Shown: piece by piece, positions 431-19,807 of the stretch
Layout of the letters: each line of letters starts with the position of its first letter
Numbering within the stretch: position 1 is the first letter of the stretch
Assembly: GCF_002854065.1 (NCBI RefSeq)
Contig: NZ_CP024153.1
Origin: Escherichia coli
GTDB lineage: Bacteria > Pseudomonadota > Gammaproteobacteria > Enterobacterales > Enterobacteriaceae
Reading direction: 5' to 3' (one strand)
Length of the DNA: 64,000 nt
Translations under genes and position numbers: made by a program
The notes under the pieces: model-generated
What the model was told of the DNA's origin: nothing
What the model saw: only the letters and a program-made list of their open reading frames with translations
Databases searched by the model: none

Positions 431-468
431 GGGGAGCCCGCAGAATTCGGAAAAAATCGTACGCTAAG
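431..468. repeat. Tn1721/Tn1722 38-bp terminal inverted repeat
   Basis: GGGGAGCCCGCAGAATTCGGAAAAAATCGTACGCTAAG matches the recalled Tn1721 IR; overlaps the tnpA stop. Confidence 0.8.
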
Positions 469-1980
469 GTTTTCCGGGCATCCGTAAGGGCCGAAACTTC
501 CCGTCTTCCAGTCTGCGGCTCTGCCGCCAGACGTAATCGCCGGTTAGGTTGATGTGCTCCCAGCCCAGCGGCGACAGGAATTGCAGCAGCTCGCCGTCCA
601 CCGGCTTGCCGGCCTCGACCAACCCCTGGGTGGCGCGTTCCAGGTACACCGTGTTCCACAGCACGATAGCCGCCGTCACCAGGTTGAGGCCGCTGGCCCG
701 GTAGCGCTGCTGCTCGAAGCTCCGATCCCTGATTTCCCCAAGGCGGTTGAAGAACACCGCCCTGGCCAGCGAGTTGCGCGCCTCACCTTTGTTCAGGCCG
801 GCATGCACGCGGCGGCGCAGTTCAACACTTTGCAGCCAGTCCAGGATGAACAGCGTGCGCTCGATCCGGCCCAGCTCGCGCAGGGCCACGGCCAGTCCGT
901 TCTGGCGCGGGTAGCTGCCGAGCTTGCGCAGCATCAGCGAGGCGGTGACGGTGCCCTGCTTGATCGAGCTGGCCAGGCGCAGGATGTCGTCCCAGTGGGC
1001 ACGCACGTGCTTGATGTTCAGGGTGCCGCCGATCAGCGGGCGCAACGTCGGGTAGGCTTGCACGCCCTGCGGCACGTACAGCTTGGTTTCGCCGAGGTCG
1101 CGGATGCGCGGCGCGAAGCGGAAGCCTAGCAGGTGCATCAGGGCAAAGACGTGATCGGTGAAGCCGGCCGTGTCGGTGTAGTGCTCCTCGATCCGCAGGT
1201 CGGACTCGTGGTACAGCAGGCCGTCGAGCACATAGGTGGAATCGCGGACGCCGACATTCACCACGCGGGTGCTGAACGGCGCGTACTGGTCGGAGATATG
1301 GGTATAGAACAGCCGTCCCGGCTCGCTACCGTACTTCGGGTTGACGTGCCCGGTGCTCTCGCCCCGGCCACCCGCGCGGAAGCGCTGGCCATCGGAGGAT
1401 GAGGTCGTGCCGTCGCCCCAGTGGGCGGCAAAGGCGTGGCGATACTGGTGGTTGACCAGCTCGGCCAAGGCCGCCGAATAGGTTTCGTCGCGGATGTGCC
1501 AGGCTTGCAGCCAGGACAGCTTGGCGTAGGTCAGGCCGGGGCTCGACTCGGCCATCTTGGTCAGCCCGAGGTTGATCGCATCACCGAGGATTGCGGACAG
1601 CAGCAACGTCCTGTCTTTGGCCTCGGCCCCGTCCTTCAAGTGGGTGAAGTGGCGGCTGAAGCCCGTCCAGTCGTCCACGTCCATCAGCAGTTCGGTGATC
1701 TTGATGCGCGGCAGTAACTGGCTGGTTTGGTCGATCAGCGCCTGCGCCCGATCCGGCACCGCCGCATCCAGCGGGGTGATTTTCAGCCCTGACTCGGTGA
1801 GGATGGCATCGGGCAGCTCGTTGTCCTTGGCCAGGCGGGTGACGGTGGCCAACTGCTCGTCCAGCAGCTGCAAACGCTCTTCCAGGTACTGGTCGCTGTT
1901 CGGGTTGATCGCCAGGGGCAGGGCCTGCTCGCGCTTGAGTGCGGCGAACTTCTCGGCCGGCAGCAGGTAGTCGTCGAAGT
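464..1980 (-). pseudogene. tnpA: Tn3-family (Tn1721-like) transposase TnpA, C-terminal ~505 aa retained; 5' end removed by IS26
   Basis: 529-aa ORF whose first 24 residues are read-through from the IS26 end; remainder has Tn3-family TnpA C-terminal character and ends at the Tn1721 IR. Confidence 0.85.
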
Positions 1981-2800
1981 GGCACTGTTGCAAATAGTCG
2001 GTGGTGATAAACTTATCATCCCCTTTTGCTGATGGAGCTGCACATGAACCCATTCAAAGGCCGGCATTTTCAGCGTGACATCATTCTGTGGGCCGTACGC
2101 TGGTACTGCAAATACGGCATCAGTTACCGTGAGCTGCAGGAGATGCTGGCTGAACGCGGAGTGAATGTCGATCACTCCACGATTTACCGCTGGGTTCAGC
2201 GTTATGCGCCTGAAATGGAAAAACGGCTGCGCTGGTACTGGCGTAACCCTTCCGATCTTTGCCCGTGGCACATGGATGAAACCTACGTGAAGGTCAATGG
2301 CCGCTGGGCGTATCTGTACCGGGCCGTCGACAGCCGGGGCCGCACTGTCGATTTTTATCTCTCCTCCCGTCGTAACAGCAAAGCTGCATACCGGTTTCTG
2401 GGTAAAATCCTCAACAACGTGAAGAAGTGGCAGATCCCGCGATTCATCAACACGGATAAAGCGCCCGCCTATGGTCGCGCGCTTGCTCTGCTCAAACGCG
2501 AAGGCCGGTGCCCGTCTGACGTTGAACACCGACAGATTAAGTACCGGAACAACGTGATTGAATGCGATCATGGCAAACTGAAACGGATAATCGGCGCCAC
2601 GCTGGGATTTAAATCCATGAAGACGGCTTACGCCACCATCAAAGGTATTGAGGTGATGCGTGCACTACGCAAAGGCCAGGCCTCAGCATTTTATTATGGT
2701 GATCCCCTGGGCGAAATGCGCCTGGTAAGCAGAGTTTTTGAAATGTAAGGCCTTTGAATAAGACAAAAGGCTGCCTCATCGCTAACTTTGCAACAGTGCC
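1981..2800 (+). mobile_element. IS26 copy 1 (820 bp, IS6 family)
   Basis: Terminal repeats GGCACTGTTGCAAA at both ends; 240-aa Tnp26 ORF; no 8-bp target duplication. Confidence 0.95.
2026..2748 (+). CDS. tnpA: IS26 transposase Tnp26 (Gly184 form: ...[14 protein letters not shown]...)
   Basis: 240 aa beginning [31 protein letters not shown] after the MLMELH leader. Confidence 0.95.
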
Positions 2801-3254
2801 ATTTTTCCCGATTCGACTTATTCGGGCGCTCCCCTGGCTCAAATGTGATTTCTCCATCCTCAACAGAGATCCCAGCCAGCCCCATGATAGAAAGATCCCC
2901 GGCCATTTCATCGGTGGTGCCGTTGGCGATTGCTGCCATCAGCTTTTCACGACTGGGGAAGCGATCCATCCAACTGATCCGATAGTCATCCGTCATCAGG
3001 CTTTCATATGCTTCCAAGAAGCGCCCGCCCTCAATGGCATAATCCGCCATCTTGTCGCCGGTTCGTGCTCCACCAGGTGCGCCGGTGCTGCTTGGCATTA
3101 GTCCGATAGCTTCCATGAAGTCGGCCCATTCCTTGTTGTGATAGCCACGCCGCCCAGGCTTGCCGAAATGGTGCTGCCATAGGTGGCACATTTCGTGGCA
3201 AAGCGTTTGCATAATTTCTTCGGGGGGGCATACGGCGAAGTAAGCCGGATTCAT
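2801..3254 (-). pseudogene. SprT-like zinc metalloprotease (HExxH) gene fragment, truncated by IS26; possibly mpR-like
   Basis: ORF contains HEMCHLWQHH zinc-binding motif near its start and reads into the IS26 end. Confidence 0.55.
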
Positions 3255-3350
3255 GGCGATTTCGTCCGTCCGGGTTCCTTGGGAGTTAACGAACCTCTCC
3301 GGGCTGAAATAGCCATAGGTTTGTTTTTCTCGTTGGAGGTGTAGGAGAGG

Positions 3351-3490
3351 AATAAAGTTTCATACTAAGCAGTCAAGTAACCCTGTTTGTACCGTTCTAA
3401 ATGATACTCACCCAGAAATAAAGATTCATACTAATTCCTACTACAAAATCTGAGTCACGCTACAACTGAGTAATAAAGTATCATACTGGT
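3351..3490. repeat. Three direct repeats AATAAAGNNTCATACTR (starting at 3351, 3418 and 3473) downstream of qnrS
   Basis: Read directly in sequence; spacing 67 and 55 bp. Confidence 0.6.
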
Positions 3491-3636
3491 TGTCTTGAGC
3501 ATCCACAGATTGATTGGCCCCATTCAAACACGTTTCTGGACAAGAATGAGCTAGAAGTATTGATCTAGCTCTGGTGATTTGAATTAGAAAATGTATTAAT
3601 GTTGTGTATAGTTTATCAGCAGGTATTCGTAAGCAT

Positions 3637-4293
3637 CTAGTCAGGAAAAACAACAATACCCAACGCTTCGAGAAGCTGTTCTTGTTGCCAGCTGGCAATT
3701 TTGATACCTGATGTATCGACTTTTCGAGGATCTAAACCGTCGAGTTCGGCGTGACATAAATTAGCACCCTGTAGGCTAAACTGTCCCCAGACATCTTCAG
3801 AAAAAACACCTCGACTTAAGTCTGACTCTTTCAGTGATGCGCCCGCGAGGTGAGTCCCTATCCAGCGATTTTCAAACAGCTCACATTTTTCTAAACAGAC
3901 CCGCTCCATATTGGCATAAGACAGGTTACATCCAGTAATAAAGGCTGAGCAAAAGTACATACGATTACTCACTTGATTGGCAAAGTTTGCTCGGGAAAAG
4001 TTGGCCCCTTTTAAATCACACTCACGTAACTCAATACCGTAGCAATTGGCGTTACTAAAGTTTGCCATCGCAAGCTGGCATTGTTGGAAACTTGCATCGC
4101 GAAGGTCTGCGACATCAAAATGGCAACCTTCGATATCACCCTGTTCAATGAACTTGCAGTTAATAAATGTCGCATCACGCAAGTTAGCACGTCGAAAATC
4201 GCATCGGATAAAGGTGCAAGCAGTGAAAGTAATATCACTTAGATCTTGATGTGAAAAACTGTGGTGTCGATATGTGTGACGGTAGGTTTCCAT
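3637..4293 (-). CDS. qnrS: Qnr pentapeptide-repeat quinolone-resistance protein, QnrS family (closest to recalled QnrS2)
   Basis: 218 aa, METYRHTYRHHSFSHQDLSDITFTACTFIRCDFRRANLRD... with tandem pentapeptide repeats and C-terminal ...LEALGIVVFPD. Confidence 0.9.
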   Translation of the reverse strand: METYRHTYRHHSFSHQDLSDITFTACTFIRCDFRRANLRDATFINCKFIEQGDIEGCHFDVADLRDASFQQCQLAMANFSNANCYGIELRECDLKGANFSRANFANQVSNRMYFCSAFITGCNLSYANMERVCLEKCELFENRWIGTHLAGASLKESDLSRGVFSEDVWGQFSLQGANLCHAELDGLDPRKVDTSGIKIASWQQEQLLEALGIVVFPD

Positions 4294-4460
4294 GTTGACT
4301 CCTATGATGAACTGGACGCAACACTACCATCAAAGCCACATCACATCACCAAAATAAAAACACTAAAAATCAAGATCTTAAAAACCCTCATTTTGCCTAT
4401 TTTAAGGGGGTAAAATAGCGCCCTGAGCCTCTATGTTAACGTTCAAAGTACGCGGCACCA

Positions 4461-5093
4461 TTGAAAAAAGTTATCCGCTTAAAAAGCCACAGAGAAAAGG
4501 AACCCAATAGATTACTGATGTCCGCCATGTTGGTTTCATCTAGTGCCCTGCTCCGTGTATTGGATTGCACAATCTATAACCATTATGCGGCAGCCTTTTG
4601 GATTGCACAATCCAAAGTTAGGGGAAGCCGACGAGCCAGGGAGCCCCGCGACCTGGTGAGCCTGGCCGAAGGCCAAAAGCCACTGCAAAACCGAAAAATT
4701 TCGTACGTACGAAAAAACATGGGGGGGTTAGAACTAGGGCAGGAAGAAGGTACATTACATAAATTAGCAAGTAGGTTAGGAATTTCATATCCCACCGCCG
4801 TTAGTTGGACTACCGACATAGGAATAAAGCTAAATCGGCAAGGCTATAATAGCCCCTCTCACGACTTTACAAATCTACAATGCCGCCATGCCAGGGAATT
4901 TCTAAAAATGACCAGGGATGATTTCTGCTCGTTATCCAAAGTAAGCAAAACAGCTCTAAGGGAATTTGAATTAGGGAAGGCCAATATCAGGAGAGAGACG
5001 GCTAATAAAATATTGGCCGCTTTTGAGGTGATGGGGATCAGGTTCAATGCTGATGGCACCTTTTCACATGGCCAAAGCACCCCCCGCGATTGA
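4461..5093 (+). CDS. Hypothetical HTH (XRE-like) DNA-binding protein; true start probably internal (about 4719)
   Basis: C-terminal ~90 aa resemble an HTH_XRE domain; the N-terminal 86 aa of the ORF are low-complexity and probably not coding. Confidence 0.4.
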   Translation: MKKVIRLKSHREKEPNRLLMSAMLVSSSALLRVLDCTIYNHYAAAFWIAQSKVRGSRRAREPRDLVSLAEGQKPLQNRKISYVRKNMGGLELGQEEGTLHKLASRLGISYPTAVSWTTDIGIKLNRQGYNSPSHDFTNLQCRHAREFLKMTRDDFCSLSKVSKTALREFELGKANIRRETANKILAAFEVMGIRFNADGTFSHGQSTPRD

Positions 5094-5157
5094 CTGCGCA
5101 ACCTGCTTTTTTATGTTAAATGGCAGTGCGAGAAGTGAGCTATGATGCGGCTTTCAG

Positions 5158-5343
5158 CTAGGTATCAGATGGCGACAATCTCGCCAATGCTGCGTTTAAA
5201 GTCGGCCTAGACACACCAAAGTGTTTTGCAACTTCAGCTTTCGTTATCTCTACATCCGACAGCATGGCCCTTGCCTTCCTGGCGTCTTCATCTGACATGG
5301 CCAAGGGTCGCCCACCGCGTCGCCCTCTTGCCCTTGCTGCCTC
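5158..5343 (-). pseudogene. Serine recombinase (resolvase/invertase) 3' fragment with C-terminal HTH, truncated by IS26
   Basis: Protein tail ...GRRGGRPLAMSDEDARKARAMLSDVEITKAEVAKHFGVSRPTLNAALARL resembles a resolvase C-terminal DNA-binding domain; upstream part replaced by IS26. Confidence 0.55.
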
Positions 5344-6163
5344 GGCACTGTTGCAAATAGTCGGTGGTGATAAACTTATCATCCCCTTTTGCTGATGGAG
5401 CTGCACATGAACCCATTCAAAGGCCGGCATTTTCAGCGTGACATCATTCTGTGGGCCGTACGCTGGTACTGCAAATACGGCATCAGTTACCGTGAGCTGC
5501 AGGAGATGCTGGCTGAACGCGGAGTGAATGTCGATCACTCCACGATTTACCGCTGGGTTCAGCGTTATGCGCCTGAAATGGAAAAACGGCTGCGCTGGTA
5601 CTGGCGTAACCCTTCCGATCTTTGCCCGTGGCACATGGATGAAACCTACGTGAAGGTCAATGGCCGCTGGGCGTATCTGTACCGGGCCGTCGACAGCCGG
5701 GGCCGCACTGTCGATTTTTATCTCTCCTCCCGTCGTAACAGCAAAGCTGCATACCGGTTTCTGGGTAAAATCCTCAACAACGTGAAGAAGTGGCAGATCC
5801 CGCGATTCATCAACACGGATAAAGCGCCCGCCTATGGTCGCGCGCTTGCTCTGCTCAAACGCGAAGGCCGGTGCCCGTCTGACGTTGAACACCGACAGAT
5901 TAAGTACCGGAACAACGTGATTGAATGCGATCATGGCAAACTGAAACGGATAATCGGCGCCACGCTGGGATTTAAATCCATGAAGACGGCTTACGCCACC
6001 ATCAAAGGTATTGAGGTGATGCGTGCACTACGCAAAGGCCAGGCCTCAGCATTTTATTATGGTGATCCCCTGGGCGAAATGCGCCTGGTAAGCAGAGTTT
6101 TTGAAATGTAAGGCCTTTGAATAAGACAAAAGGCTGCCTCATCGCTAACTTTGCAACAGTGCC
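5344..6163 (+). mobile_element. IS26 copy 2
   Basis: Identical to copy 1 including terminal repeats. Confidence 0.95.
5389..6111 (+). CDS. tnpA: IS26 transposase Tnp26 (Gly184 form)
   Basis: Identical 240-aa ORF. Confidence 0.95.
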   Translation: MLMELHMNPFKGRHFQRDIILWAVRWYCKYGISYRELQEMLAERGVNVDHSTIYRWVQRYAPEMEKRLRWYWRNPSDLCPWHMDETYVKVNGRWAYLYRAVDSRGRTVDFYLSSRRNSKAAYRFLGKILNNVKKWQIPRFINTDKAPAYGRALALLKREGRCPSDVEHRQIKYRNNVIECDHGKLKRIIGATLGFKSMKTAYATIKGIEVMRALRKGQASAFYYGDPLGEMRLVSRVFEM

Positions 6164-6409
6164 GTCGATTGAAACACGGTGCATCTGATCGGACAGGGCG
6201 TCTAAGAGCGGCGCAATACGTCTGATCTCATCGGCCGGCGATACAGGCCTCGCGTCCGGATGGCTGGCGGCCGGTCCGACATCCACGACGTCTGATCCGA
6301 CTCGCAGCATTTCGATCGCCGCGGTGACAGCGCCGGCGGGGTCTAGCCGCCGGCTCTCATCGAAGAAGGAGTCCTCGGTGAGATTCAGAATGCCGAACAC
6401 CGTCACCAT
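6164..6409 (-). pseudogene. sul1: sul1 dihydropteroate synthase, first ~82 codons only; truncated by IS26
   Basis: [82 protein letters not shown] then IS26. Confidence 0.9.
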
Positions 6410-6750
6410 GGCGTCGGCCTCCGCAGCGACTTCCACGATGGGGATCGGGCGAGCAAAAAGGCAGCAATTATGAGCCCCATACCTACAAAGCCCCACGCAT
6501 CAAGCTTTTGCCCATGAAGCAACCAGGCAATGGCTGTAATTATGACGACGCCGAGTCCCGACCAGACTGCATAAGCAACACCGACAGGGATGGATTTCAG
6601 AACCAGAGAAAGAAAATAAAATGCGATGCCATAACCGATTATGACAACGGCGGAAGGGGCAAGCTTAGTAAAGCCCTCGCTAGATTTTAATGCGGATGTT
6701 GCGATTACTTCGCCAACTATTGCGATAACAAGAAAAAGCCAGCCTTTCAT
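6403..6750 (-). CDS. qacEdelta1: QacEdelta1 small multidrug-resistance efflux protein (class 1 integron 3'-CS)
   Basis: 115 aa [81 protein letters not shown]... Confidence 0.9.
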
Positions 6751-6972
6751 GATATATCTCCCAATTTGTGTAGGGCTTATTATGCACGCTTAAAAATAAT
6801 AAAAGCAGACTTGACCTGATAGTTTGGCTGTGAGCAATTATGTGCTTAGTGCATCTAACGCCGCCATAAACGGCGACAGGGTGGCGCGCCTATTGCGCAT
6901 AAAATGGCGAAGCCATGCGCAACAGGCGCGGAATCTCTGGCGTCCGGTTTGATGGCTTTGTTATGCAAAGGA

Positions 6973-7425
6973 CTAGTCTTCAATGACGTGTAAACCACGG
7001 CGCTTTAAGTCCTCCAACGAATCCAACATTCCCCTTATTAATTCAACAGGATGCCCCTCCCAGTCTTCAACAACGCCAACAATTCTCAAGGGTTCGCAGG
7101 TTCTATAGGACTGTGTTGGATTACCGGGAAATCTTTTGTTCGTAAGATTCGGATCGTCTTCGAACGGTCCTGTTGGCTCAACTATGTATATGTAGCCGCG
7201 ACCCTCGAGGCCAGACAGTGACATAGCAAGTTCAGCTCCCCAAACTGCTGGCTCCATCAAGGCTGAAAAGTAGATGTGCTTAAGAATACGACCGTCCTCG
7301 AAATGAGAGATGAACCCTGTGGTTAGCAAGTCACCAATCGCCAAATTGGCTTTGGTTCCATGATAGAACGGTCCTTGAACCTGCTTGTAATTATCATGAG
7401 AGATGGGAATCCAATCTTTTACCAT
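6973..7425 (-). CDS. arr-3: Arr-3 rifampin ADP-ribosyltransferase (integron cassette)
   Basis: 150 aa MVKDWIPISHDNYKQVQGPFYHGTKANLAIGDLLTTGF... Confidence 0.9.
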   Translation of the reverse strand: MVKDWIPISHDNYKQVQGPFYHGTKANLAIGDLLTTGFISHFEDGRILKHIYFSALMEPAVWGAELAMSLSGLEGRGYIYIVEPTGPFEDDPNLTNKRFPGNPTQSYRTCEPLRIVGVVEDWEGHPVELIRGMLDSLEDLKRRGLHVIED

Positions 7426-7509
7426 TTTAAGACCCTTAATTGTTGGGATTTGGCTGCATAACGCCTGAAATAAGCCGTGCCGCGAAGCGGCATCGGCTTG
7501 ATTGAATTG

Positions 7510-8142
7510 TTAGACGGCAAACTCGAGCCAATACTTGTGCAGGCCAACAATATTAGACGAGCACAGCATGGGCATTGCCGCTTTGATCTTCTCCAGTGAC
7601 CAATTCCACCACTCCATCTCCAGAAGCAATGAAATTTCCTCATCGGTGAAGCGTTTCTTAATCTTCTTAGCGGGATTGCCGCCAACGATAGCGTAAGGCT
7701 CCACATCTTTTGTCACCAACGAGCGGCTGCCTATCACCGCACCGTGCCCGATCTTGATTCCGGGCATGACCATTGCCTCAGAGCCGATCCAAACGTCATT
7801 GCCAATGACAGTATTACCTGCTTTTTGGAAGGCATCGAGTGCGCTTGAGAATGCAGGTTCTTCCTGCATATAAAAGAACGGGAAAGATGATGCCCAGTCG
7901 TACCGATGCCCCTGATTGCCAGCCATGATAAAGGAAGCCCCACTCCCGATAGAGCAGAAACTACCGATGATCAACTTATCAACGTCATCACGGTCCGGAA
8001 ACAGATACCGTGCGCAGTCATCGAATGAGTGCCCATGATAGTAGCCAGAGTAATAGCTGTACCGCCCAACTTTGATATTGGGGTTCTTCACTTGCTCAGA
8101 AAGCAGCTTGCCTTTGAAGGGGCTATCAAAGTAGTTGGTCAT
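7510..8142 (-). CDS. catB3: CatB3 xenobiotic (chloramphenicol) acetyltransferase, full length (integron cassette)
   Basis: 210 aa [42 protein letters not shown]... with hexapeptide-repeat acetyltransferase character. Confidence 0.9.
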
Positions 8143-8279
8143 AAGAGATCCCGCGGTCTGTGACTTTGCCGTCTAACGTTTGAAATAAGGGGCGCCGAGC
8201 GCCAGCGAGGGGAGCCAAAAGCTTGCTTTTGGCCGTCCCGACTTGATTGAAGGGTTGGGCGATTTTGCCATTAGATTTT

Positions 8280-9110
8280 TTATAAATTTAGTGTGTTTAG
8301 AATGGTGATCGCATTTTTCTTGGCTTTTATGCTTGATGTTAAATTCGACCCCAAGTTTCCTGTAAGTGCGGACACAAAAACATATTTATGTCCTGATTTG
8401 CTTATAATAAACCCTTCAAACCATCCGTTTTGTAAGGTTCTATTTGCTGTGAATCCTGCACCAGTTTTCCCATACAGTTTTGTACTATTATCCAGATCTT
8501 GTAGATACATGTTCTCTATGGTGTTTTCTATGGCTGAGTTTTTAACTGGGAGATTGTGATTAATAATTTTACGCAGGAATTGAATTTGTTCTTCTGGTGA
8601 AATTTTTAAGCTACTTTCGAGCCATGCTTCTGTTAATCCGTTGTTTCTTTCTTTATCTCCAGAGAAGTCTTGATTTCCATAATCAAAATCTTTGAGATAA
8701 TTCTTGATTTTATTTAATCCAATTTTTTGGGTTATTTCTTGCGAAACCCAAACAACAGAAAATTGCATCCACGTCTTTGGTGTATGATTGCTGTTCCAGA
8801 TCTCCATTCCTTTGGGGGTTTTATCCCATTTGAATATGGTTTTCTGATCTATTATTTCCGCATCAAATGCCATAAGTGATAATGCGATCTTGAAAGTTGA
8901 ATCTGGTGCCATTTGCGTTGCACACTTTGCTTTATTGAATTGAGCAATTTCAGCGTTTGTGGATGCATCGTAAAGTAAAAAACAACCTTCAGTTCCTTCA
9001 AATAATGGAGATGCAACAGTAGAGATATCTGTTGATGCACTGGCGCTGCTGTAGATAATATTTGCAATTATTAAAAAAATAGCGAAGTTGATATGTATTG
9101 TGTTTTTCAT
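8280..9110 (-). CDS. blaOXA-1: OXA-1 class D beta-lactamase (integron cassette)
   Basis: 276 aa from internal start MKNTIHINFAIFLIIANIIYSSASASTDISTV...; STFK active-site motif present; the ORF track extends 15 codons upstream. Confidence 0.93.
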   Translation of the reverse strand: MKNTIHINFAIFLIIANIIYSSASASTDISTVASPLFEGTEGCFLLYDASTNAEIAQFNKAKCATQMAPDSTFKIALSLMAFDAEIIDQKTIFKWDKTPKGMEIWNSNHTPKTWMQFSVVWVSQEITQKIGLNKIKNYLKDFDYGNQDFSGDKERNNGLTEAWLESSLKISPEEQIQFLRKIINHNLPVKNSAIENTIENMYLQDLDNSTKLYGKTGAGFTANRTLQNGWFEGFIISKSGHKYVFVSALTGNLGSNLTSSIKAKKNAITILNTLNL

Positions 9111-9240
9111 AATAAGTATTGGTTTGGTAAAGGGCTTAATTTTAACGGCTAACAATTAATGAGGCTCCGGGTTCGCCCAACGTTTGACATGAGGGGCGGC
9201 CAAGGGCGCCAGCCCTTGGACGTCCCCCTCGATGGAAGGG

Positions 9241-9958: not shown

Positions 9959-10023
9959 TAGGGCGACTGCCCTGCTGCGTAACATCGTTGCTGCTCCATA
10001 ACATCAAACATCGACCCACGGCG
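9959..10023 (-). other. attI1 recombination site of integron A (approximate)
   Basis: 5'-CS sequence ...GCCCTAAAACAAAG/TTAG... junction with the first cassette. Confidence 0.5.
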
Positions 10024-10086
10024 TAACGCGCTTGCTGCTTGGATGCCCGAGGCATAGACTGTACAAAAAAACAGTCATAACAAGCC

Positions 10087-10768
10087 ATGAAAACCGCCAC
10101 TGCGCCGTTACCACCGCTGCGTTCGGTCAAGGTTCTGGACCAGTTGCGTGAGCGCATACGCTACTTGCATTACAGTTTACGAACCGAACAGGCTTATGTC
10201 CACTGGGTTCGTGCCTTCATCCGTTTCCACGGTGTGCGTCACCCGGCAACCTTGGGCAGCAGCGAAGTCGAGGCATTTCTGTCCTGGCTGGCGAACGAGC
10301 GCAAGGTTTCGGTCTCCACGCATCGTCAGGCATTGGCGGCCTTGCTGTTCTTCTACGGCAAGGTGCTGTGCACGGATCTGCCCTGGCTTCAGGAGATCGG
10401 AAGACCTCGGCCGTCGCGGCGCTTGCCGGTGGTGCTGACCCCGGATGAAGTGGTTCGCATCCTCGGTTTTCTGGAAGGCGAGCATCGTTTGTTCGCCCAG
10501 CTTCTGTATGGAACGGGCATGCGGATCAGTGAGGGTTTGCAACTGCGGGTCAAGGATCTGGATTTCGATCACGGCACGATCATCGTGCGGGAGGGCAAGG
10601 GCTCCAAGGATCGGGCCTTGATGTTACCCGAGAGCTTGGCACCCAGCCTGCGCGAGCAGCTGTCGCGTGCACGGGCATGGTGGCTGAAGGACCAGGCCGA
10701 GGGCCGCAGCGGCGTTGCGCTTCCCGACGCCCTTGAGCGGAAGTATCCGCGCGCCGGGCATTCCTGGC
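10087..10768 (+). pseudogene. intI1: intI1 class 1 integrase, 3'-truncated by IS26 (about 227 of 337 codons)
   Basis: [53 protein letters not shown]...; ORF runs into the IS26 terminal repeat at 10769. Confidence 0.9.
10174..10202 (-). promoter_or_regulatory. Integron Pc cassette promoter, TGGACA-N17-TAAACT (PcH1-type)
   Basis: Hexamers read on minus strand inside the intI1 5' region. Confidence 0.6.
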
Positions 10769-11628: not shown

Positions 11629-12137
11629 CCCTCCCGCACGATGATCGTGCCGTGATCGAAATCCAGATCCTTGACCCGCAGTTGCAAACCCTCACTGATC
11701 CGCATGCCCGTTCCATACAGAAGCTGGGCGAACAAACGATGCTCGCCTTCCAGAAAACCGAGGATGCGAACCACTTCATCCGGGGTCAGCACCACCGGCA
11801 AGCGCCGCGACGGCCGAGGTCTTCCGATCTCCTGAAGCCAGGGCAGATCCGTGCACAGCACCTTGCCGTAGAAGAACAGCAAGGCCGCCAATGCCTGACG
11901 ATGCGTGGAGACCGAAACCTTGCGCTCGTTCGCCAGCCAGGACAGAAATGCCTCGACTTCGCTGCTGCCCAAGGTTGCCGGGTGACGCACACCGTGGAAA
12001 CGGATGAAGGCACGAACCCAGTGGACATAAGCCTGTTCGGTTCGTAAACTGTAATGCAAGTAGCGTATGCGCTCACGCAACTGGTCCAGAACCTTGACCG
12101 AACGCAGCGGTGGTAACGGCGCAGTGGCGGTTTTCAT
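11629..12137 (-). pseudogene. intI1: intI1 class 1 integrase, 3'-truncated at a different point (about 170 codons retained)
   Basis: Same N-terminus as the other intI1, ends ...[12 protein letters not shown] then IS26-end sequence. Confidence 0.9.
12022..12050 (+). promoter_or_regulatory. Integron Pc cassette promoter, TGGACA-N17-TAAACT (PcH1-type)
   Basis: Hexamers read directly in the 5'-CS. Confidence 0.6.
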
Positions 12138-12211
12138 GGCTTGTTATGACTGTTTTTTTGTACAGTCTATGCCTCGGGCATCCAAGCAGCAAGCGCGTTA
12201 CGCCGTGGGTC

Positions 12212-12277
12212 GATGTTTGATGTTATGGAGCAGCAACGATGTTACGCAGCAGGGCAGTCGCCCTAAAACAAAGTTAG
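12212..12277 (+). other. attI1 recombination site of integron B (approximate)
   Basis: 5'-CS ...GCCCTAAAACAAAG/TTAG junction with the dfrA12 cassette. Confidence 0.5.
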
Positions 12278-12281
12278 CCAT

Positions 12282-12779
12282 ATGAACTCGGAATCAGTAC
12301 GCATTTATCTCGTTGCTGCGATGGGAGCCAATCGGGTTATTGGCAATGGTCCTAATATCCCCTGGAAAATTCCGGGTGAGCAGAAGATTTTTCGCAGACT
12401 CACTGAGGGAAAAGTCGTTGTCATGGGGCGAAAGACCTTTGAGTCTATCGGCAAGCCTCTACCGAACCGTCACACATTGGTAATCTCACGCCAAGCTAAC
12501 TACCGCGCCACTGGCTGCGTAGTTGTTTCAACGCTGTCGCACGCTATCGCTTTGGCATCCGAACTCGGCAATGAACTCTACGTCGCGGGCGGAGCTGAGA
12601 TATACACTCTGGCACTACCTCACGCCCACGGCGTGTTTCTATCTGAGGTACATCAAACCTTCGAGGGTGACGCCTTCTTCCCAATGCTCAACGAAACAGA
12701 ATTCGAGCTTGTCTCAACCGAAACCATTCAAGCTGTAATTCCGTACACCCACTCCGTTTATGCGCGTCGAAACGGCTAA
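12282..12779 (+). CDS. dfrA12: DfrA12 trimethoprim-resistant dihydrofolate reductase (cassette)
   Basis: 165 aa MNSESVRIYLVAAMGANRVIGNGPNIPWKIPGEQKIFRRLTEGKVVVMGRKTFESIG... Confidence 0.93.
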   Translation: MNSESVRIYLVAAMGANRVIGNGPNIPWKIPGEQKIFRRLTEGKVVVMGRKTFESIGKPLPNRHTLVISRQANYRATGCVVVSTLSHAIALASELGNELYVAGGAEIYTLALPHAHGVFLSEVHQTFEGDAFFPMLNETEFELVSTETIQAVIPYTHSVYARRNG

Positions 12780-12890
12780 CCATTCCGTCAACGGGACGCC
12801 AAAATGCTGCGCATTTTGGTTCCCTCCGCTGCGCTCCGGCTCTCGTTACGTCCAACGTTAGCACCACTGAAACCCAGCTTTATTTAGCTC

Positions 12891-13181
12891 ATGTTTATTC
12901 AAACGGCATTTAGCTTTTCAGGCGTTATTCAGTGCCTGTTTTGCCTTTTTTCCGGGCTTCGCCTGCATGGGCTGCGCAGGTTTTCAGTCTTTTTGGCCTC
13001 TAGCCCTTGCGTAGCAAGCGCAAGCAGCTATCGTTTTTGCAGTGCTGTGCCGCCTCGGTGGCGCAGCGTTTTTTCACGGTTAGCGCCCGTCGCCAAATTC
13101 AAGTTATCCGTTTTGGCTTCTGGTTCTAACATTTCGGTCAAGCCGACCCGCATTCTGCGGTCGGCTTACCTCGCCCGTTAG
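12891..13181 (+). CDS. gcuF: gcuF/orfF gene cassette of unknown function
   Basis: 96-aa ORF between dfrA12 and aadA2, the position of the classic array. Confidence 0.75.
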   Translation: MFIQTAFSFSGVIQCLFCLFSGLRLHGLRRFSVFLASSPCVASASSYRFCSAVPPRWRSVFSRLAPVAKFKLSVLASGSNISVKPTRILRSAYLAR

Positions 13182-13186
13182 ACATC

Positions 13187-13978
13187 ATGAGGGAAGCGGT
13201 GACCATCGAAATTTCGAACCAACTATCAGAGGTGCTAAGCGTCATTGAGCGCCATCTGGAATCAACGTTGCTGGCCGTGCATTTGTACGGCTCCGCAGTG
13301 GATGGCGGCCTGAAGCCATACAGCGATATTGATTTGTTGGTTACTGTGGCCGTAAAGCTTGATGAAACGACGCGGCGAGCATTGCTCAATGACCTTATGG
13401 AGGCTTCGGCTTTCCCTGGCGAGAGCGAGACGCTCCGCGCTATAGAAGTCACCCTTGTCGTGCATGACGACATCATCCCGTGGCGTTATCCGGCTAAGCG
13501 CGAGCTGCAATTTGGAGAATGGCAGCGCAATGACATTCTTGCGGGTATCTTCGAGCCAGCCATGATCGACATTGATCTAGCTATCCTGCTTACAAAAGCA
13601 AGAGAACATAGCGTTGCCTTGGTAGGTCCGGCAGCGGAGGAATTCTTTGACCCGGTTCCTGAACAGGATCTATTCGAGGCGCTGAGGGAAACCTTGAAGC
13701 TATGGAACTCGCAGCCCGACTGGGCCGGCGATGAGCGAAATGTAGTGCTTACGTTGTCCCGCATTTGGTACAGCGCAATAACCGGCAAAATCGCGCCGAA
13801 GGATGTCGCTGCCGACTGGGCAATAAAACGCCTACCTGCCCAGTATCAGCCCGTCTTACTTGAAGCTAAGCAAGCTTATCTGGGACAAAAAGAAGATCAC
13901 TTGGCCTCACGCGCAGATCACTTGGAAGAATTTATTCGCTTTGTGAAAGGCGAGATCATCAAGTCAGTTGGTAAATGA
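13187..13978 (+). CDS. aadA2: AadA2 streptomycin/spectinomycin adenylyltransferase ANT(3'')-Ia family (cassette)
   Basis: 263 aa MREAVTIEISNQLSEVLSVIERHLESTLLAVHLYGSAVDGGLKPYSDIDLLVTV... Confidence 0.93.
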   Translation: MREAVTIEISNQLSEVLSVIERHLESTLLAVHLYGSAVDGGLKPYSDIDLLVTVAVKLDETTRRALLNDLMEASAFPGESETLRAIEVTLVVHDDIIPWRYPAKRELQFGEWQRNDILAGIFEPAMIDIDLAILLTKAREHSVALVGPAAEEFFDPVPEQDLFEALRETLKLWNSQPDWAGDERNVVLTLSRIWYSAITGKIAPKDVAADWAIKRLPAQYQPVLLEAKQAYLGQKEDHLASRADHLEEFIRFVKGEIIKSVGK

Positions 13979-14032
13979 TGTCTAACAATTCGTTCAAGCC
14001 GACCGCGCTACGCGCGGCGGCTTAACTCCGGC

Positions 14033-14132
14033 GTTAGATGCACTAAGCACATAATTGCTCACAGCCAAACTATCAGGTCAAGTCTGCTTTTATTATTTTT
14101 AAGCGTGCATAATAAGCCCTACACAAATTGGG
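14033..14132 (+). other. First ~100 bp of the class 1 integron 3'-CS, cut before qacEdelta1
   Basis: Same sequence as 6760-6858 (inverted) up to ...ACACAAATTGGG, then unrelated low-GC DNA. Confidence 0.8.
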
Positions 14133-14462
14133 TAAAACCGCAAGAACTGTAATTATGAATTTGTCAGAAAACTATCCGTACAAGGAAGTGTATGAAAAAT
14201 GTCTGGTATAATAAAGATATCATCTTGAAAATCGAGTGTTGCTCTGTGGATAACTTGCAGGGTTTAATAAGTATCTTTACTCAAAAGTTGCAATCAATAA
14301 TTTATTGAAAAAGATTGAAAGGTGGTGGTAAATAATGTTACAATGTGGGAGTATCAGTTTAAATTCTTCGTGAAATAGTGTTCTTTTAAGCTAATAAAAA
14401 ATGCACGTGGAATTTAGGTCAAAGAAAAGTAAAGAAAAATTTATTTATGGAGGTAAAAAAGG

Positions 14463-14855
14463 ATGAGTCAAGTTGTTGATTTTTTAAATGAAGCAAAAAC
14501 TTTTTATTTTGCAACCGTTGAAGGAGACCAGCCAAGGGTCAGACCGTTTAATGCAGCCATGGAGAGGAATGGCAAGGTCTATCTTGGTACAACCAATCAG
14601 AAAAAAGTTTATCAGCAGTTATTGGCAAATTCAAAGGTGGAAGTCTCAGGTATGGCAAAAGGAAAATGGATTCGGCTCACCGGCGAAGCCGTAATTGATG
14701 ATACCGTGGAAGCAAGGGAAGCAATGCTTGAAGCAAATCCGCCTTTGAGAGATTGGTATAGCGCTGATGATGGGAAATTCACCGTATTTTATTTGAAAAA
14801 CATGCAGGCAGTTTTATATTCCTTTACAGGAGATCCGGAGATATTAGATAATTAA
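14463..14855 (+). CDS. Pyridoxamine-5'-phosphate-oxidase-like FMN-binding family protein (hypothetical) in low-GC segment
   Basis: 130-aa ORF with AT-rich upstream region and RBS-like GGAGG; family assignment by general sequence character, unverified. Confidence 0.5.
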   Translation: MSQVVDFLNEAKTFYFATVEGDQPRVRPFNAAMERNGKVYLGTTNQKKVYQQLLANSKVEVSGMAKGKWIRLTGEAVIDDTVEAREAMLEANPPLRDWYSADDGKFTVFYLKNMQAVLYSFTGDPEILDN

Positions 14856-15095
14856 TCAAAACATGCAGCCCAGTGGTAGAATGAACTGACCCCCATAAGT
14901 TAGACCAAAAATCTAACTTATGGGAGGTCATTTTTTATGGCAAAATACAGTTATGAATTTAAGTTACAAGTTGTTCAAGCATATTTAGATTTTTATTTTG
15001 TCCGTTTTGTCTAGCTTACCGAAAGCCAGACTCAGCAAGAATAAAATTTTTATTGTCTTTCGGTTTTCTAGTGTAACGGACAAAACCACTCAAAA

Positions 15096-15133
15096 TAAAA
15101 AAGATACAAGAGAGGTCTCTCGTATCTTTTATT
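15096..15133 (-). terminator. Bidirectional hairpin terminator downstream of bleO
   Basis: A-run, stem GATACAAGAGAG/CTCTCGTATC, T-run read directly. Confidence 0.5.
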
Positions 15134-15174
15134 CAGCAATCGCGCCCGATTGCTGAACAGATTAATAATAGATT

Positions 15175-15552
15175 TTAGCTTTTTATTTGTTGAAAAAAGC
15201 TAATCAAATTGTTGTCGGGATCAATTACTGCAAAGTCTCGTTCATCCCACCACTGATCTTTTAATGATGTATTGGGGTGCAAAATGCCCAAAGGCTTAAT
15301 ATGTTGATATAATTCATCAATTCCCTCTACTTCAATGCGGCAACTAGCAGTACCAGCAATAAACGACTCCGCACCTGTACAAACCGGTGAATCATTACTA
15401 CGAGAGCGCCAGCCTTCATCACTTGCCTCCCATAGATGAATCCGAACCTCATTACACATTAGAACTGCGAATCCATCTTCATGGTGAACCAAAGTGAAAC
15501 CTAGTTTATCGCAATAAAAACCTATACTCTTTTTAATATCCCCGACTGGCAA
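15175..15552 (-). CDS. bleO: Bleomycin-binding protein, glyoxalase/VOC fold (BleO-like, Gram-positive type)
   Basis: 125 aa MPVGDIKKSIGFYCDKLGFTLVHHEDGFAVLMCNEVRIHLWEASDEGW... matches recalled pUB110-type Ble. Confidence 0.75.
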   Translation of the reverse strand: MPVGDIKKSIGFYCDKLGFTLVHHEDGFAVLMCNEVRIHLWEASDEGWRSRSNDSPVCTGAESFIAGTASCRIEVEGIDELYQHIKPLGILHPNTSLKDQWWDERDFAVIDPDNNLISFFQQIKS

Positions 15553-15648
15553 TGCCGGGATAGACTATTATTCTCCCCGGAGCCACTACGCTGACCCGGT
15601 TGATTTCAGAGGTAAGGGAAAAGGCGACGTTGCGCCTGTGGAACAAAC

Positions 15649-16470
15649 GGCACTGTTGCAAAGTTAGCGATGAGGCAGCCTTTTGTCTTATTCAAAGGCC
15701 TTACATTTCAAAAACTCTGCTTACCAGGCGCATTTCGCCCAGGGGATCACCATAATAAAATGCTGAGGCCTGGCCTTTGCGTAGTGCACGCATCACCTCA
15801 ATACCTTTGATGGTGGCGTAAGCCGTCTTCATGGATTTAAATCCCAGCGTGGCGTTGATTATCCGTTTCAGTTTGCCATGATCGCATTCAATCACGTTGT
15901 TCCGGTACTTAATCTGTCGGTGTTCAACGTCAGACGGGCACCGGCCTTCGCGTTTTGAGCAGAGCAAGCGCGCGACCATAGGCGGGCGCTTTATCCGTGT
16001 TGATGAATCGTGGGAATCTGCCACTTCTTCACGTTGTTGAGGATTTTACCCAGAAACCGGTATGCAGCTTTGCTGTTACGACGGGAGGAGAGATAAAAAT
16101 CGACAGTGCGGCCCCGGCTGTCGACGGCCCGGTACAGATACGCCCAGCGGCCATTGACCTTCACGTAGGTTTCATCCATGTGCCACGGGCAAAGATCGGA
16201 AGGGTTACGCCAGTACCAGCGCAGCCGTTTTTCCATTTCAGGCGCATAACGCTGAACCCAGCGGTAAATCGTGGAGTGATCGACATTCACTCCGCGTTCA
16301 GCCAGCATCTCCTGCAGCTCACGGTAACTGATGCCGTATTTGCAGTACCAGCGTACGGCCCACAGAATGATGTCACGCTGAAAATGCCGGCCTTTGAATG
16401 GGTTCATGTGCAGCTCCATCAGCAAAAGGGGATGATAAGTTTATCACCACCGACTATTTGCAACAGTGCC
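15649..16470 (-). mobile_element. IS26 copy 4 (822 bp; two 1-bp insertions)
   Basis: Both terminal repeats present; extra A at about 16010 (GGGAATCTG vs GGGATCTG) and extra T at about 15953 (GCGTTTTGAGC vs GCGTTTGAGC). Confidence 0.95.
15701..16425 (-). pseudogene. tnpA: IS26 tnpA disrupted by frameshift (split into 144-aa and 107-aa ORFs; Asn184 form)
   Basis: ORFs 15991-16425 and 15701-16024 together cover Tnp26 with a frame change between them. Confidence 0.85.
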
Positions 16471-16584
16471 TAAAAATCGACCATACAGAGAGGGAAACCA
16501 CCGGAGTGGTGGGAAAAGCAGAAAGGCTCACGTGGCATAAGGCGTGGACAATGGTATCGACTGGTTTTTCAATTTCCTATACGT
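16471..16584. repeat. 114-bp fragment identical (inverted) to the 3'-side end of the IS91-family element at 23324-23437
   Basis: Reverse complement of 16471-16584 matches 23324-23437; abuts the IS26 end on one side and GTTC-containing flank on the other. Confidence 0.8.
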
Positions 16585-16673
16585 GAACTATTGAAGTAAT
16601 CAATCAAATTTTATAGGCTGATAGCCAAGTAACAACCACCAATGATATGCCAGGTAAAATCAGGGGACGTAAA

Positions 16674-18110
16674 ATGAGTACTCTTGATGTTCAGAAGCTC
16701 AAGGATGATGCCGTCGAATGGGCCTTAACTCATGGTGTTGCTTTCAAGGAATCGTCGTATTCCGCAGTGCATACCCCGTTTACCCTGACACCAACACCTA
16801 TCAGCCGTAAATCCTATCAGTACTTAAAGAATGCAACAGGAATACTCAGCAAATTAATCTATTCAGTTTCTGAGGATCATGATTTTTTGTACTCTGCGAT
16901 TTATCCCATCAAGGCCGGGAATGCCTTCTTTTCAGCCCTCCTGAACATGCATCAACAAATCCATTCATCATCAAGGCATGCTCCTCGATTACCATTACTC
17001 ATTATGCGTAGCGACTTTATGGATGATAATCGTGATGGGTTCAGGCTTATAGAGTTCAATGGTATAGCTGCAGGAATGGGGCCGTTTGGTCAGCGGATAC
17101 ATGATCTGCATCACTATCTACAACGGCAATATCCCGCTGTCTTTTCTGATTTATCGAATCAGGCAACAGGGGCGCTTGTCGACAATCAAGCGATCGAAGG
17201 GTTATCAGCAGCGATTTGTCAGGCAACTTGCAGAATTAAGCAGGAGTTCGGAGACCCCGGCCCTGCCAGGTTCCTGATGATTGTGCAGGAGAATGAAAAT
17301 AATGTGTTTGATCAACACTTGCTTGAGCTCGCCCTCCAGCAAAAAGGAATCGAAACGCATCGCAGGACTTTTCGTGAACTGCATAATCAATTGAGTACAG
17401 GCGCCGACAACAGGCTCATTCTCGAGGGTGTAGGCCCACTTGATACCGTCTACTTACGTGCCGGATATCAGTATTCTGATTATGAAGCATTCAATATCGA
17501 TGAGCAGGAGTGTTGTCAGGCGCTGATGGCGACCCGAGTATTCATTGAGCAGCACCGGGTTGCAGTGAACGCCACAGTTGGCCAGCAACTGGCGACCAGC
17601 AAGCGAGTACAAATGCTGCTCTCGCAATTGGGTTACGACGAGTTTGTCGCATTTGGATTAACACTGCAGGAAGCTAAAATAGCAAAAACGATACTGGGTG
17701 AGATGTTACCCATCAGCCCGGATAGTATCAACCTTGCAAAAGAGTCTCCTTCGGAAACCTGGGTTCTCAAAAATCAGGGTGAAGGCGGGGGGCATTGTCT
17801 GTTTGGTGCGGATATCCTGACAAAACTGACGGAACTCACTCCACAACAATATCAGTCCTGGTCGCTGATGCGCCGTTTACACCCTCAGCCCCGAGCTATG
17901 CCCACCTTGATTGTGCGTAAAGGGGAGTTGCATAAGGTGAATGATTTGATAAGCGAACTTGGAATGTTCTCCGTGCAGACAGATAACAATCCCTCCAGTG
18001 CTGAGCACAGTTTTGCTGGATATCTAATTCGTAGCAAATCAGCTGAATCGACAGAGGGAGGGGTCCATAGTGGACAAGGTGTTTTAGACTCGCTGGTATA
18101 CAGCGATTAG
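16674..18110 (+). CDS. Eukaryotic-type glutathione synthetase-like ATP-grasp protein (ORF track start 16647)
   Basis: Blocks resembling recalled human GSS: TPFTLTPT, IEFNGIAAGMGP, LMIVQENENNVFDQ...IETHRRTFREL, VYLRAGYQ, KNQGEGGGHCLFG. Confidence 0.7.
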   Translation: MSTLDVQKLKDDAVEWALTHGVAFKESSYSAVHTPFTLTPTPISRKSYQYLKNATGILSKLIYSVSEDHDFLYSAIYPIKAGNAFFSALLNMHQQIHSSSRHAPRLPLLIMRSDFMDDNRDGFRLIEFNGIAAGMGPFGQRIHDLHHYLQRQYPAVFSDLSNQATGALVDNQAIEGLSAAICQATCRIKQEFGDPGPARFLMIVQENENNVFDQHLLELALQQKGIETHRRTFRELHNQLSTGADNRLILEGVGPLDTVYLRAGYQYSDYEAFNIDEQECCQALMATRVFIEQHRVAVNATVGQQLATSKRVQMLLSQLGYDEFVAFGLTLQEAKIAKTILGEMLPISPDSINLAKESPSETWVLKNQGEGGGHCLFGADILTKLTELTPQQYQSWSLMRRLHPQPRAMPTLIVRKGELHKVNDLISELGMFSVQTDNNPSSAEHSFAGYLIRSKSAESTEGGVHSGQGVLDSLVYSD

Positions 18111-18527
18111 TCCCTTTCAAGGGGGCTGAAATCTGGTTATATGAAAGCATGCGGTAAGTGGTGTTTTAGCCCCAGTGGAGATGATGCTGTTTCTAGACTG
18201 AGTCGTAGTAAGCTAATAATAGTATTATAAATGAAGCCATGAGGGTATTTACAGGGCATATCTTATTAAGGGAACAACAGCAAAAACTGCTGCTATAAGA
18301 GGCTGCACCCAAAGTTCTTCAAGGTTCACATCATCGCTGCTGGGTCGATGCTGTTTCAGTTACGGGTCAATTTTCAATACCATTAGCTGTTCCTGTGACT
18401 ACGGTCATTACGCGCTGTCGACATCAATTTGTACAGCAAACAGTCTTAGCGTGGGATATTTAATGAGATGGTCACTCCCTCCTTCCCGGTACTATGCTGA
18501 GGATAGGCTTTCATTCGGAGAACTATC

Positions 18528-19532: not shown

Positions 19533-19807
19533 CGGCAGAAATACACCGGTTTAAAGAATCACTGATCTGGTTTTGCGAATACTGATATTGATGATACTAA
19601 CGGCCCACCGGCCTGTTGAGGAACCTGTAAAACGGAAAGGCTCATTGAAGCCGTATATTTTCTGGAGGTTCATCAGGCGCGGAACTCATCGAGGCGCGGG
19701 AATAAAATCCCATTCAGACGCCGGATAGATTCAAGCAAGCCAATTTATCGTCAAAATCGGTGTTGCAAAAACGGGAGTGACCATAGATTCCGTTTTCCAA
19801 GCGGACC

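Follow-up and report, generated by a model that had tools for sequence, protein, structure and literature searches.

The window analysed here, a 64-kb stretch of DNA, carries a qnrS gene close to a fragment of a metalloprotease gene, and three direct repeats lie in the DNA between the two. The first-pass annotation, made from the sequence alone, had noticed these repeats and left them unexplained. What are they, and do they have anything to do with the resistance gene beside them? A starting point is provided by the mobile insertion cassette mic-qnrS2, published as an element of 1,375 bp with 22-bp imperfect inverted repeats (IRs), a CCTCC duplication and no transposase (Cattoir 2008, PMC2600179; PMC5444012).

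Results

The qnrS2 gene, the mpR fragment and the IS26 frame

The open reading frame at 3637-4293 encodes a pentapeptide-repeat protein of the QnrS family (NCBIfam QnrS model NF000056, 510 bits), and the DNA from 2801 to 4528 is 100% identical to plasmids whose corresponding CDS is annotated as QnrS2 WP_012537714.1 (AMRFinderPlus qnrS2, 100%). The allele is thus QnrS2 rather than QnrS1, as the first-pass annotation had supposed; a QnrS1 protein in the usual qnrS1 flanks, which would have spoken against its view of the locus, was looked for and is not what the window holds. The metalloprotease fragment was likewise correctly attributed to mpR of Aeromonas-type IncU plasmids, but its extent is 2801-3339 and not 2801-3254. 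Over this whole length it is 100% identical to the intact mpR gene of pFBAOT6 (L004 2501-3039), which encodes a 243-aa SprT-like HExxH protein of IncU plasmids. In the fragment itself the Pfam SprT-like domain is recognised (E=1.6e-12), and the HExxH motif is present as HEMCH at ~3183-3197 on the minus strand.

Identity to the uninterrupted mpR of pFBAOT6 ends at 3339, immediately after GGAGG, where TGTAGGAGAGGAATAAAGTTTC begins. This junction is the published insertion point of mic-qnrS2, with its CCTCC duplication and 22-bp IR (PMC2600179), so that the proposed context, a transposase-less cassette inserted in mpR, is the right one.

The segment 2801-5343 (2,543 bp), a piece of IncU backbone, is bracketed by two direct copies of IS26, the arrangement of an IS26-bounded pseudo-compound transposon or translocatable unit. 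The left copy contains an IS6-family transposase ORF at 2026-2748, and mpR is cut at its edge, between 2800 and 2801. In the backbone piece at 4740-5343, an HTH regulator ORF (~4719-5093) and, on the minus strand, the 3' part of a resolvase gene (5158-5343) were assigned with the Pfam families HTH_3 and Resolvase; the piece owes its present junction to a second deletion, which took ~506 bp by comparison with pSE5419-3. Across the IS26-bounded qnrS2 segment, many plasmids of E. coli and Salmonella match the window at 100% identity. All features are listed in Table 1.

Table 1. Features of the qnrS2 locus, with positions in the window, strand and the basis of each assignment.
Feature	Positions	Strand	Basis or remark
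IS26, left copy, 820 bp	1981..2800	+	Terminal repeats GGCACTGTTGCAAA at 1981 (+) and 2800 (-)
Internal mpR fragment (SprT-like zinc metalloprotease, IncU plasmids), ~codons 34-212 of 243	2801..3339	-	Identity to pFBAOT6 mpR
Surviving copy of the 5-bp duplication, GGAGG (CCTCC on the mpR strand)	3335..3339	.	Only GGAGG/CCTCC in 3200-5400
Left-end module of the qnrS2 mic, TGT at tip	3340..3555	+	mpR identity stops at 3339; 3340-3361 is the published 22-bp IR
Repeat 1, probable TnsB-type site L1, core 3351-3366, overlapping the 22-bp IR	3348..3369	+	Core at position 12 from the tip, as in Tn7L (12)
Repeat 2, probable TnsB-type site L2, core 3417-3432	3414..3435	+	Position 78 from the tip vs 76 in Tn7L
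Repeat 3, probable TnsB-type site L3, core 3472-3487	3469..3490	+	Position 133 from the tip vs 132 in Tn7L
Cargo segment, qnrS2 with its own flanks, cut at 4528	3556..4528	-	100% identical to intact mic up to 4528
qnrS2 coding sequence, 218 aa	3637..4293	-	QnrS model and identity to annotated plasmids
Putative qnrS2 promoter, -35 TTCTCT (4496-4491), -10 TAACTT (4473-4468)	4468..4496	-	Motifs from Cattoir 2008 (PMC2600179)
Junction of the 273-bp deletion	4524..4528	.	Alignment with p71506-1, pAH6 and pFBAOT6
First 11 nt of mpR (start codon 4539-4537) and IncU intergenic backbone upstream of mpR	4529..4744	-	99.5% identical to pFBAOT6 (L004 3122-3342)
IncU backbone piece	4740..5343	+	100% identical to pSE5419-3, a P. 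aeruginosa IncU plasmid (L147 5223-5826)
IS26, right copy, same orientation as left	5344..6163	+	Terminal repeats; transposase ORF 5389-6111

The three repeats belong to the left end of the cassette

We counted exactly three copies of the pattern AATAAAGNNTCATACT in the window, all on the plus strand, at 3351, 3417 and 3472, against a chance mean of 0.00 in 100 shuffles. The copies can be extended to 21 nt and are spaced by 66 and 55 nt. The three 17-bp direct repeats of the first-pass annotation are therefore real, but the positions given for the last two, 3418 and 3473, were off by one. More importantly, they are not spacer between the mpR fragment and qnrS: they form the left end of the cassette itself.

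The complete element is found in the A. veronii plasmid p71506-1, flanked on both sides by CCTCC. It measures 1370 bp, or 1375 bp counting one copy of the duplication, and consists of a 216-bp left-end module, 1035 bp of cargo (qnrS2 and its promoter) and a 119-bp right-end module. Both modules have TGT at their tip, but the sites lie dispersed in the left one, at positions 12, 78 and 133, and abut each other in the right one, at 12, 33 and 53. Read inward, the intact right end is TGTGTGAGTAG-AATAAAGTTTCGTTACT-AAGT-AATAAAGAATCATACT-GAGT-ATTAAAGATTCATACT, that is, three inverted copies side by side, of which the terminal one has a 1-nt insertion (TTTCGTTACT). Since repeat 1 overlaps the IR and three inverted copies are present at the other end, the motif is a sub-terminal end repeat. 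The termini of the element, TGTAGGAG... at 3340 on the left and ...CTCACACA on the right of the intact copy, have the form TGT...ACA.

An alignment of 17 distinct left ends revealed that conservation is limited to the tip and the three sites. L1 is near-invariant, and L2 and L3 are conserved islands amid spacers that diverge in sequence while the spacing is fixed. Multi-piece BLAST matches on Aeromonas plasmids had hinted that the repeats vary in copy number; alignment with these plasmids shows them to be invariant, and the extra DNA behind these matches is a 113-bp MITE in pAC3 together with the 273 bp that the window lacks (see below).

The copy in the window has lost its right end

In the window the left terminus alone is present. 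A 273-bp deletion took the last 181 bp of the element, namely 62 bp of cargo and the whole 119-bp right-end module, in which the three putative TnsB-type sites lay, as well as the second copy of the duplication and 87 bp of 5' coding sequence of mpR. The BLAST segments overlap at the junction (GCCAT/GCAAT), and the same 273 bp are missing from pAH6 and from many E. coli and Salmonella plasmids. We found neither a second IR nor a second copy of the duplication in the window; 3200-5400 contains a single GGAGG/CCTCC. The first-pass annotation had suggested looking for the IRs of the cassette in 3255-3636 and in 4294-4460: the former interval does contain the published 22-bp IR, whereas a search of the latter cannot succeed, the second IR having been deleted from this copy. 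The best inverted pair around the gene (3315-3336 and 4487-4508, 73% complementary) matches no boundary and was treated as chance. The putative qnrS2 promoter is still present inside the truncated cassette.

The cassette has moved, and its ends carry other cargo elsewhere

The identical 1370-bp cassette is present at at least five different sites, each with its own perfect 5-bp duplication: CCTCC in mpR of IncU plasmids, AAACC between catB3 and blaOXA-1 in an IncHI2 integron, CTCAC on an IncA plasmid, ACACC on IncQ2 plasmids and CGTGG on a metagenome contig. The qnrS2 cassette itself was seen on plasmids and unassigned metagenome contigs, and not at glmS. Other cargos are enclosed by the same end modules (positions 1-216 and 1252-1370) at ~98% identity; positions 1-216, for instance, are the left ends of two elements with different cargo (L047 and L014), and the cargo of the mic, positions 217-1251, is not common to sister elements with the same end modules. 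The element is thus, as far as these alignments go, modular, with ends plus exchangeable cargo.

The ends resemble those of Tn7

Asymmetric multi-site ends, TGT tips and a 5-bp duplication are the signature of Tn7. We extracted both Tn7 ends from R721 (NC_002525), in which the right end matches the known Tn7R sequence at 100%. Measured from the tip, the sites start at 12, 76 and 132 in Tn7L and at 12, 78 and 133 in the left end of the cassette; on the right they start at 12, 32, 53 and 73 in Tn7R and at 12, 33 and 53 in the cassette. The positions in the cassette thus agree with those of R721 Tn7 within 2 nt. The cores of the sites are also related (AATAAAGTnTCATACT in the cassette, AATAAAGTCTTAAACT in Tn7R). 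Like members of the Tn7 family, the cassette has a 5-bp duplication and several repeats per end in an asymmetric layout, dispersed on the left and abutting on the right.

BLAST searches with the right end detected ends that are 80-88% identical on plasmids of Vibrio, Aeromonas, Shewanella, Photobacterium, Proteus and Acinetobacter. Vibrio sp. dhg carries an 11.5-kb cargo-only element with the duplication TCATG and the same left-end spacing of 66/55 as the cassette. A genome scan anchored on the hairpin that follows the third right-end site gave 11 further cargo-only copies, three of which follow glmS at a distance of ~25 bp and have their packed end beside it; GlmS at the genome loci was confirmed by Pfam. 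So anchored, the scan found cargo-only elements alone, and a hairpin-free pattern was needed for autonomous ones. A metagenome scan with a two-site right-end pattern yielded 120 loci, at 37 of which a TnsA homologue follows directly after the end. The genes at the tnsA-linked loci are in the order 271/699/557/515/522 aa and were identified by Pfam at two loci (L074 and L153) as TnsA, TnsB, TnsC, TnsD and TnsE. TnsB of these two loci matches Tn7 TnsB (PDB 7PIK) with E=1.6e-203, and the TnsB proteins linked to the motif are 50-100% identical to one another.

A position 24-26 nt after a glmS-type stop codon, with the packed end proximal, was found for 30 of 36 tnsA-linked ends and for 13 of 71 ends without tnsA. 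Insertion of the TnsD type, ~25 bp downstream of glmS, is therefore seen in relatives that share the motif, autonomous and cargo-only alike. One closed autonomous element of 32.7 kb consists of, in order from glmS, the right end, tnsABCDE, defence cargo and the left end; it has three left-end sites spaced by 67/55 and the duplication ATCTT, and a second right end follows directly after it. An autonomous relative downstream of glmS is exemplified by contig CAJGZG010000008.1 of GCA_904845915.1. Complete elements without tns genes, 0.35-11 kb in size, occupy at least 26 metagenome loci.

Several candidates were discarded along the way. The 706-aa and 214-aa ORFs suspected of being tnsB and tnsA in the 11.5-kb Vibrio element (L005) are a split aconitase. 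Beside the right end in V. ruber, where tnsA and tnsB were also suspected, the 215-aa ORF is TerB-like and the 566-aa ORF has no assignment. SprT-like genes were considered as targets, and the right-end copy near such a gene in P. baetica (L020) is an uninformative 170-bp remnant. The plasmid-borne tnsABCD relatives of pPp47 and an S. khirikhana plasmid, considered as helpers, retain a single site beside tnsA in right ends that have been rearranged.

We found no tns homologue in the 64-kb window, in the cassette or on those qnrS2 plasmids that were examined. Having no tns genes, although relatives with the same end sites encode them, the cassette is a non-autonomous derivative and not a full member of the Tn7 family.

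Discussion

What the repeats are

Taken together, comparisons of the ends and of their relatives indicate, with a probability that we put at about 0.88, that the three repeats are left-end TnsB-type sites of a non-autonomous Tn7-family transposon, which is the qnrS2 mic described in 2008. The mic may best be read as a natural mini-Tn7 that is mobilised in trans.

The most serious competitor for the ends is another multi-site transposase family. The Tn5053/Tn402 (TniA) and Mu-like families also have TGT termini, 5-bp duplications and repeated sub-terminal sites, and the coding content of the cassette does not decide between them and Tn7. However, every autonomous element that we found with the motif encodes TnsA and TnsD/TnsE and sits at glmS, whereas Tn5053 and Mu are without TnsA and TnsD/TnsE. 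The hallmarks of Tn5053/Tn402 itself (TniABQR, 25-bp IRs, res-site targeting and no TnsA) are not those of the relatives, which encode TnsA, TnsD and TnsE and target glmS. Moreover, the positions of the sites in the cassette copy those of Tn7. We regard an origin from these families as very unlikely.

That the repeats are operators, that is, binding sites of a regulator of qnrS2 expression, is a natural thought when three regularly spaced copies of one motif lie near a resistance gene whose expression in E. coli has been reported to depend on quinolones (PMC5444012). Yet they are situated beyond the 3' end of qnrS2, 150-290 bp past the stop codon and on the side opposite to the promoter at 4468-4496, and identically spaced copies of these sites surround unrelated cargo in many elements that have no qnrS. 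A role in the regulation of qnrS2 is argued against by both of these facts, and we consider it highly improbable. An explanation of the repeats as IncU iterons or partition sites, or as AT-rich similarity that arose by chance, deserves hardly any credence. Spaced direct repeats are indeed typical of plasmid iterons, but the uninterrupted IncU backbone of pFBAOT6 does not have these ones, which arrive with the insertion and are also present in chromosomes at glmS; for chance similarity, the expectation is 0.00 per 64 kb.

How the cassette may have reached its present location

If the repeats are Tn7-family end sites, a resident autonomous relative would supply TnsA+TnsB, the cut-and-paste transposase, together with TnsC and TnsD or TnsE, in trans. 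From the architecture of the ends and the gene content of the relatives, we infer that TnsB would bind the end sites and that the element would be excised and then inserted with a 5-bp duplication. TnsD would target it downstream of glmS, and TnsE would target it into conjugative or mobilisable plasmids; the TnsE route is the probable way into mpR of the IncU plasmid. In the lineage of the window, the 273-bp deletion then removed the entire right end, and two IS26 copies captured the 2.5-kb IncU slice, making IS26 the likely present vehicle. Expression of qnrS2 would rely on the promoter that the cassette has kept, with no contribution from the repeats.

The right end is reportedly indispensable for Tn7, a result said to go back to a 1989 paper by Arciszewska, Drake and Craig, which PMC11014353 lists among its references. 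Because this end was removed by the 273-bp deletion, the copy in the window, with its left end only, can be presumed unable to transpose and mobile only through IS26.

Beyond this locus, it is likely, though less firmly so than the identity of the repeats, that the mic belongs to an extensive and overlooked group of gene-less mini-Tn7s of natural origin. These elements, of 0.35-11.5 kb and with diverse cargo, would reside on plasmids of Vibrio, Shewanella, Aeromonas, Pseudoalteromonas and Acinetobacter and at glmS, and would parasitise resident TnsABC+D/E machineries; it is by this route, and not through an IS transposase, that qnrS2 would have passed from aquatic bacteria to IncU, IncQ, IncA and IncHI2 plasmids. 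If so, TnsB may still recognise the orphan left end between the IS26 copies, which could thereby give the plasmid target immunity against Tn7-family insertions.

What is known and what appears to be new

QnrS2, the mic in mpR and the capture by IS26 are already known. What appears to be new is that the mic can be placed in the Tn7 family and its repeats identified as probable TnsB-type sites. The papers on mic-qnrS2 (PMC2600179, PMC5444012) describe 22-bp IRs and an unnamed transposase in trans, with no internal repeats and no Tn7, and a literature search of incomplete coverage found nothing that links qnrS2 or the mic to Tn7 or TnsB. Since 2008 mic-qnrS2 has been said to move by a "transposase acting in trans"; its Tn7-family ends point to TnsABC with TnsD or TnsE as the likely machinery, a reading that would also explain why the duplications are 5 bp long and why plasmids are preferred.

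Our analysis further suggests that natural cargo-only satellites of Tn7-family elements are numerous and that annotation pipelines have overlooked them because no transposase is encoded. These satellites matter for following the routes by which resistance and defence genes leave aquatic bacteria. The practical consequences for the window are modest: the cassette appears to be dead, and the spread of qnrS2 via IS26 was known before. A small open question on a clinically relevant gene would be settled, and no new mechanism is revealed.

Comparison with known systems

The window contains the published mic-qnrS2 (Cattoir 2008, PMC2600179; Picao 2008; the pAC3 paper, PMC5444012), with the same mpR site, IR and promoter: qnrS2 is the sole gene, there is no transposase, and the element lies in mpR at CCTCC. 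It differs from the published form in being a 1189-bp remnant that has neither the right IR nor one copy of the duplication, rather than 1375 bp with both 22-bp IRs and both copies. In this truncated state it has no substantial difference from the IS26-qnrS2-ΔmpR-IS26 structure of pRJ749 (PMC7158099), which has the same two IS26 copies, ΔmpR and truncated mic, and for which circular IS26-qnrS2 forms have been reported; the structure has also been described in E. coli contexts (bioRxiv 10.1101/2024.04.24.590863).

With Tn7 the cassette has in common the TGT...ACA termini and the 5-bp duplication, the three dispersed sites on the left and the abutting sites on the right at the same distances from the tip, and a related site core (AATAAAGT.T.A.ACT); the site sequence of the cassette differs from that of Tn7 at ~5 of 18 positions. 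Its motif-sharing relatives encode TnsABCDE, with TnsB proteins ~47% identical to that of Tn7, and occupy attTn7 downstream of glmS, their right end being proximal to that gene. In contrast to Tn7, which has four right-end sites, the cassette has three, and it is only 1.37 kb long and without tns genes.

Engineered mini-Tn7 vectors, in which the left end (~144-166 bp) and the right end (~70-200 bp) of Tn7 enclose the cargo and the tns genes are provided in trans, have the same design. They are laboratory constructs, whereas the elements considered here are natural, numerous and loaded with diverse cargo. Natural transposase-less elements that are moved in trans, sometimes with a passenger gene, are likewise known as MIC231 (IS231, Bacillus), TIMEs and IMUs (Tn3 family) and MITEs. 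These, however, derive from IS or Tn3 families with a single transposase and have simple IRs, without the asymmetric multi-site ends, heteromeric transposase and attachment-site targeting that characterise the Tn7 family.

Tns-less elements sharing Tn7-type ends with the qnrS2 cassette

Complete elements that lack tns genes, have Tn7-type ends as in the qnrS2 mobile insertion cassette (mic) and are flanked by 5-bp TSDs form a large family, with sizes of 0.35-11.5 kb and differing cargo. Examples of the cargo are hflKC-nhaA, a HAD hydrolase together with a Pua-like phosphoesterase, a PD-(D/E)XK nuclease and a group II intron. The hosts are aquatic Gammaproteobacteria, in which these elements are present on both plasmids and chromosomes.

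Immediately past the innermost right-end site there is a hairpin that is conserved among the cargo-only elements; the region that would contain it is deleted from the mic copy of the window. Autonomous elements, i.e., those with tnsABCDE, have a different, terminator-like hairpin (CCCCTGCTAAAG...CTTTAGCAGGGGTTTTTT) that precedes tnsA. Some autonomous and some orphan ends contain sites reading ...TCATCCT instead of ...TCATACT, and on pPp47 such a variant site adjoins mer genes. Ends with ...TCATCCT sites may constitute a sub-family having its own TnsB specificity.

Features located in the window and in the compared loci (L-numbers)
Feature	Position	Strand	Remark
Tns-less elements	L005 (Vibrio sp. 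dhg) 12004-23511; L011 2722-5750; L019 6518-8943; L009 ~9990-10561; L016; many of L026-L145		
Right-end hairpin TGGCAGCG...CGCTGCCA	L003 4790-4840; L005 12070-12110; L024 11930-11960		L003: intact mic right end
...TCATCCT variant	L052; L006 11754-11789; L008 8420-8614		L052: autonomous
Sister-specificity left end, Vibrio salilacus	L024 ~15300-15450		sites AATAAAGTYTGATCA, tip TGTCGGCAGAC
15-bp perfect direct repeat TTGGATTGCACAATC	window 4560-4574 and 4598-4612		palindrome inside each copy
Tn3-family transposase fragment	window 464-2053	-	cut by IS26
qacEΔ1 + truncated sul1	window 6002-6750		

Tandem and hybrid elements at attTn7

The Vibrio salilacus island downstream of glmS (L024) opens with a mic-family right end and closes with a sister-specificity left end, an arrangement that points to Tn7-type elements lying in tandem, or to hybrids of them, at attTn7. 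In tandem arrays at attTn7 (L075 5870-6060; L058), exactly 5 bp lie between the left end of one element and the right end of the element that follows. The L058 array has a small cargo-only element immediately ahead of an autonomous one.

Surroundings of the cassette in the window and elsewhere

The window (1-64000) is a typical IS26-rich multiresistance region: 16 matches to the IS26 terminal repeat were detected, corresponding to at least seven complete IS26 copies plus partial ones. The TTGGATTGCACAATC pair, also present in pFBAOT6, lies within IncU backbone, in the mpR-mobC intergenic region, and resembles a pair of operators at which a regulator encoded by the backbone would act.

An intact qnrS2 cassette, with TSD AAACC, is located within a class 1 integron array, in the catB3/blaOXA-1 interval, of the E. 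cloacae IncHI2 plasmid OW849179 (L149 2501-3870). The same cassette array (blaOXA-1, catB3, arr-3) is present at ~6970-9155 of the window, without the qnrS2 cassette inserted. In pAC3 (L001), the published 113-bp Aeromonas MITE is inserted at a CTAG equivalent to window ~3551-3554, no more than a few bp from the point where the left-end module stops on its inner side (mic position 216).
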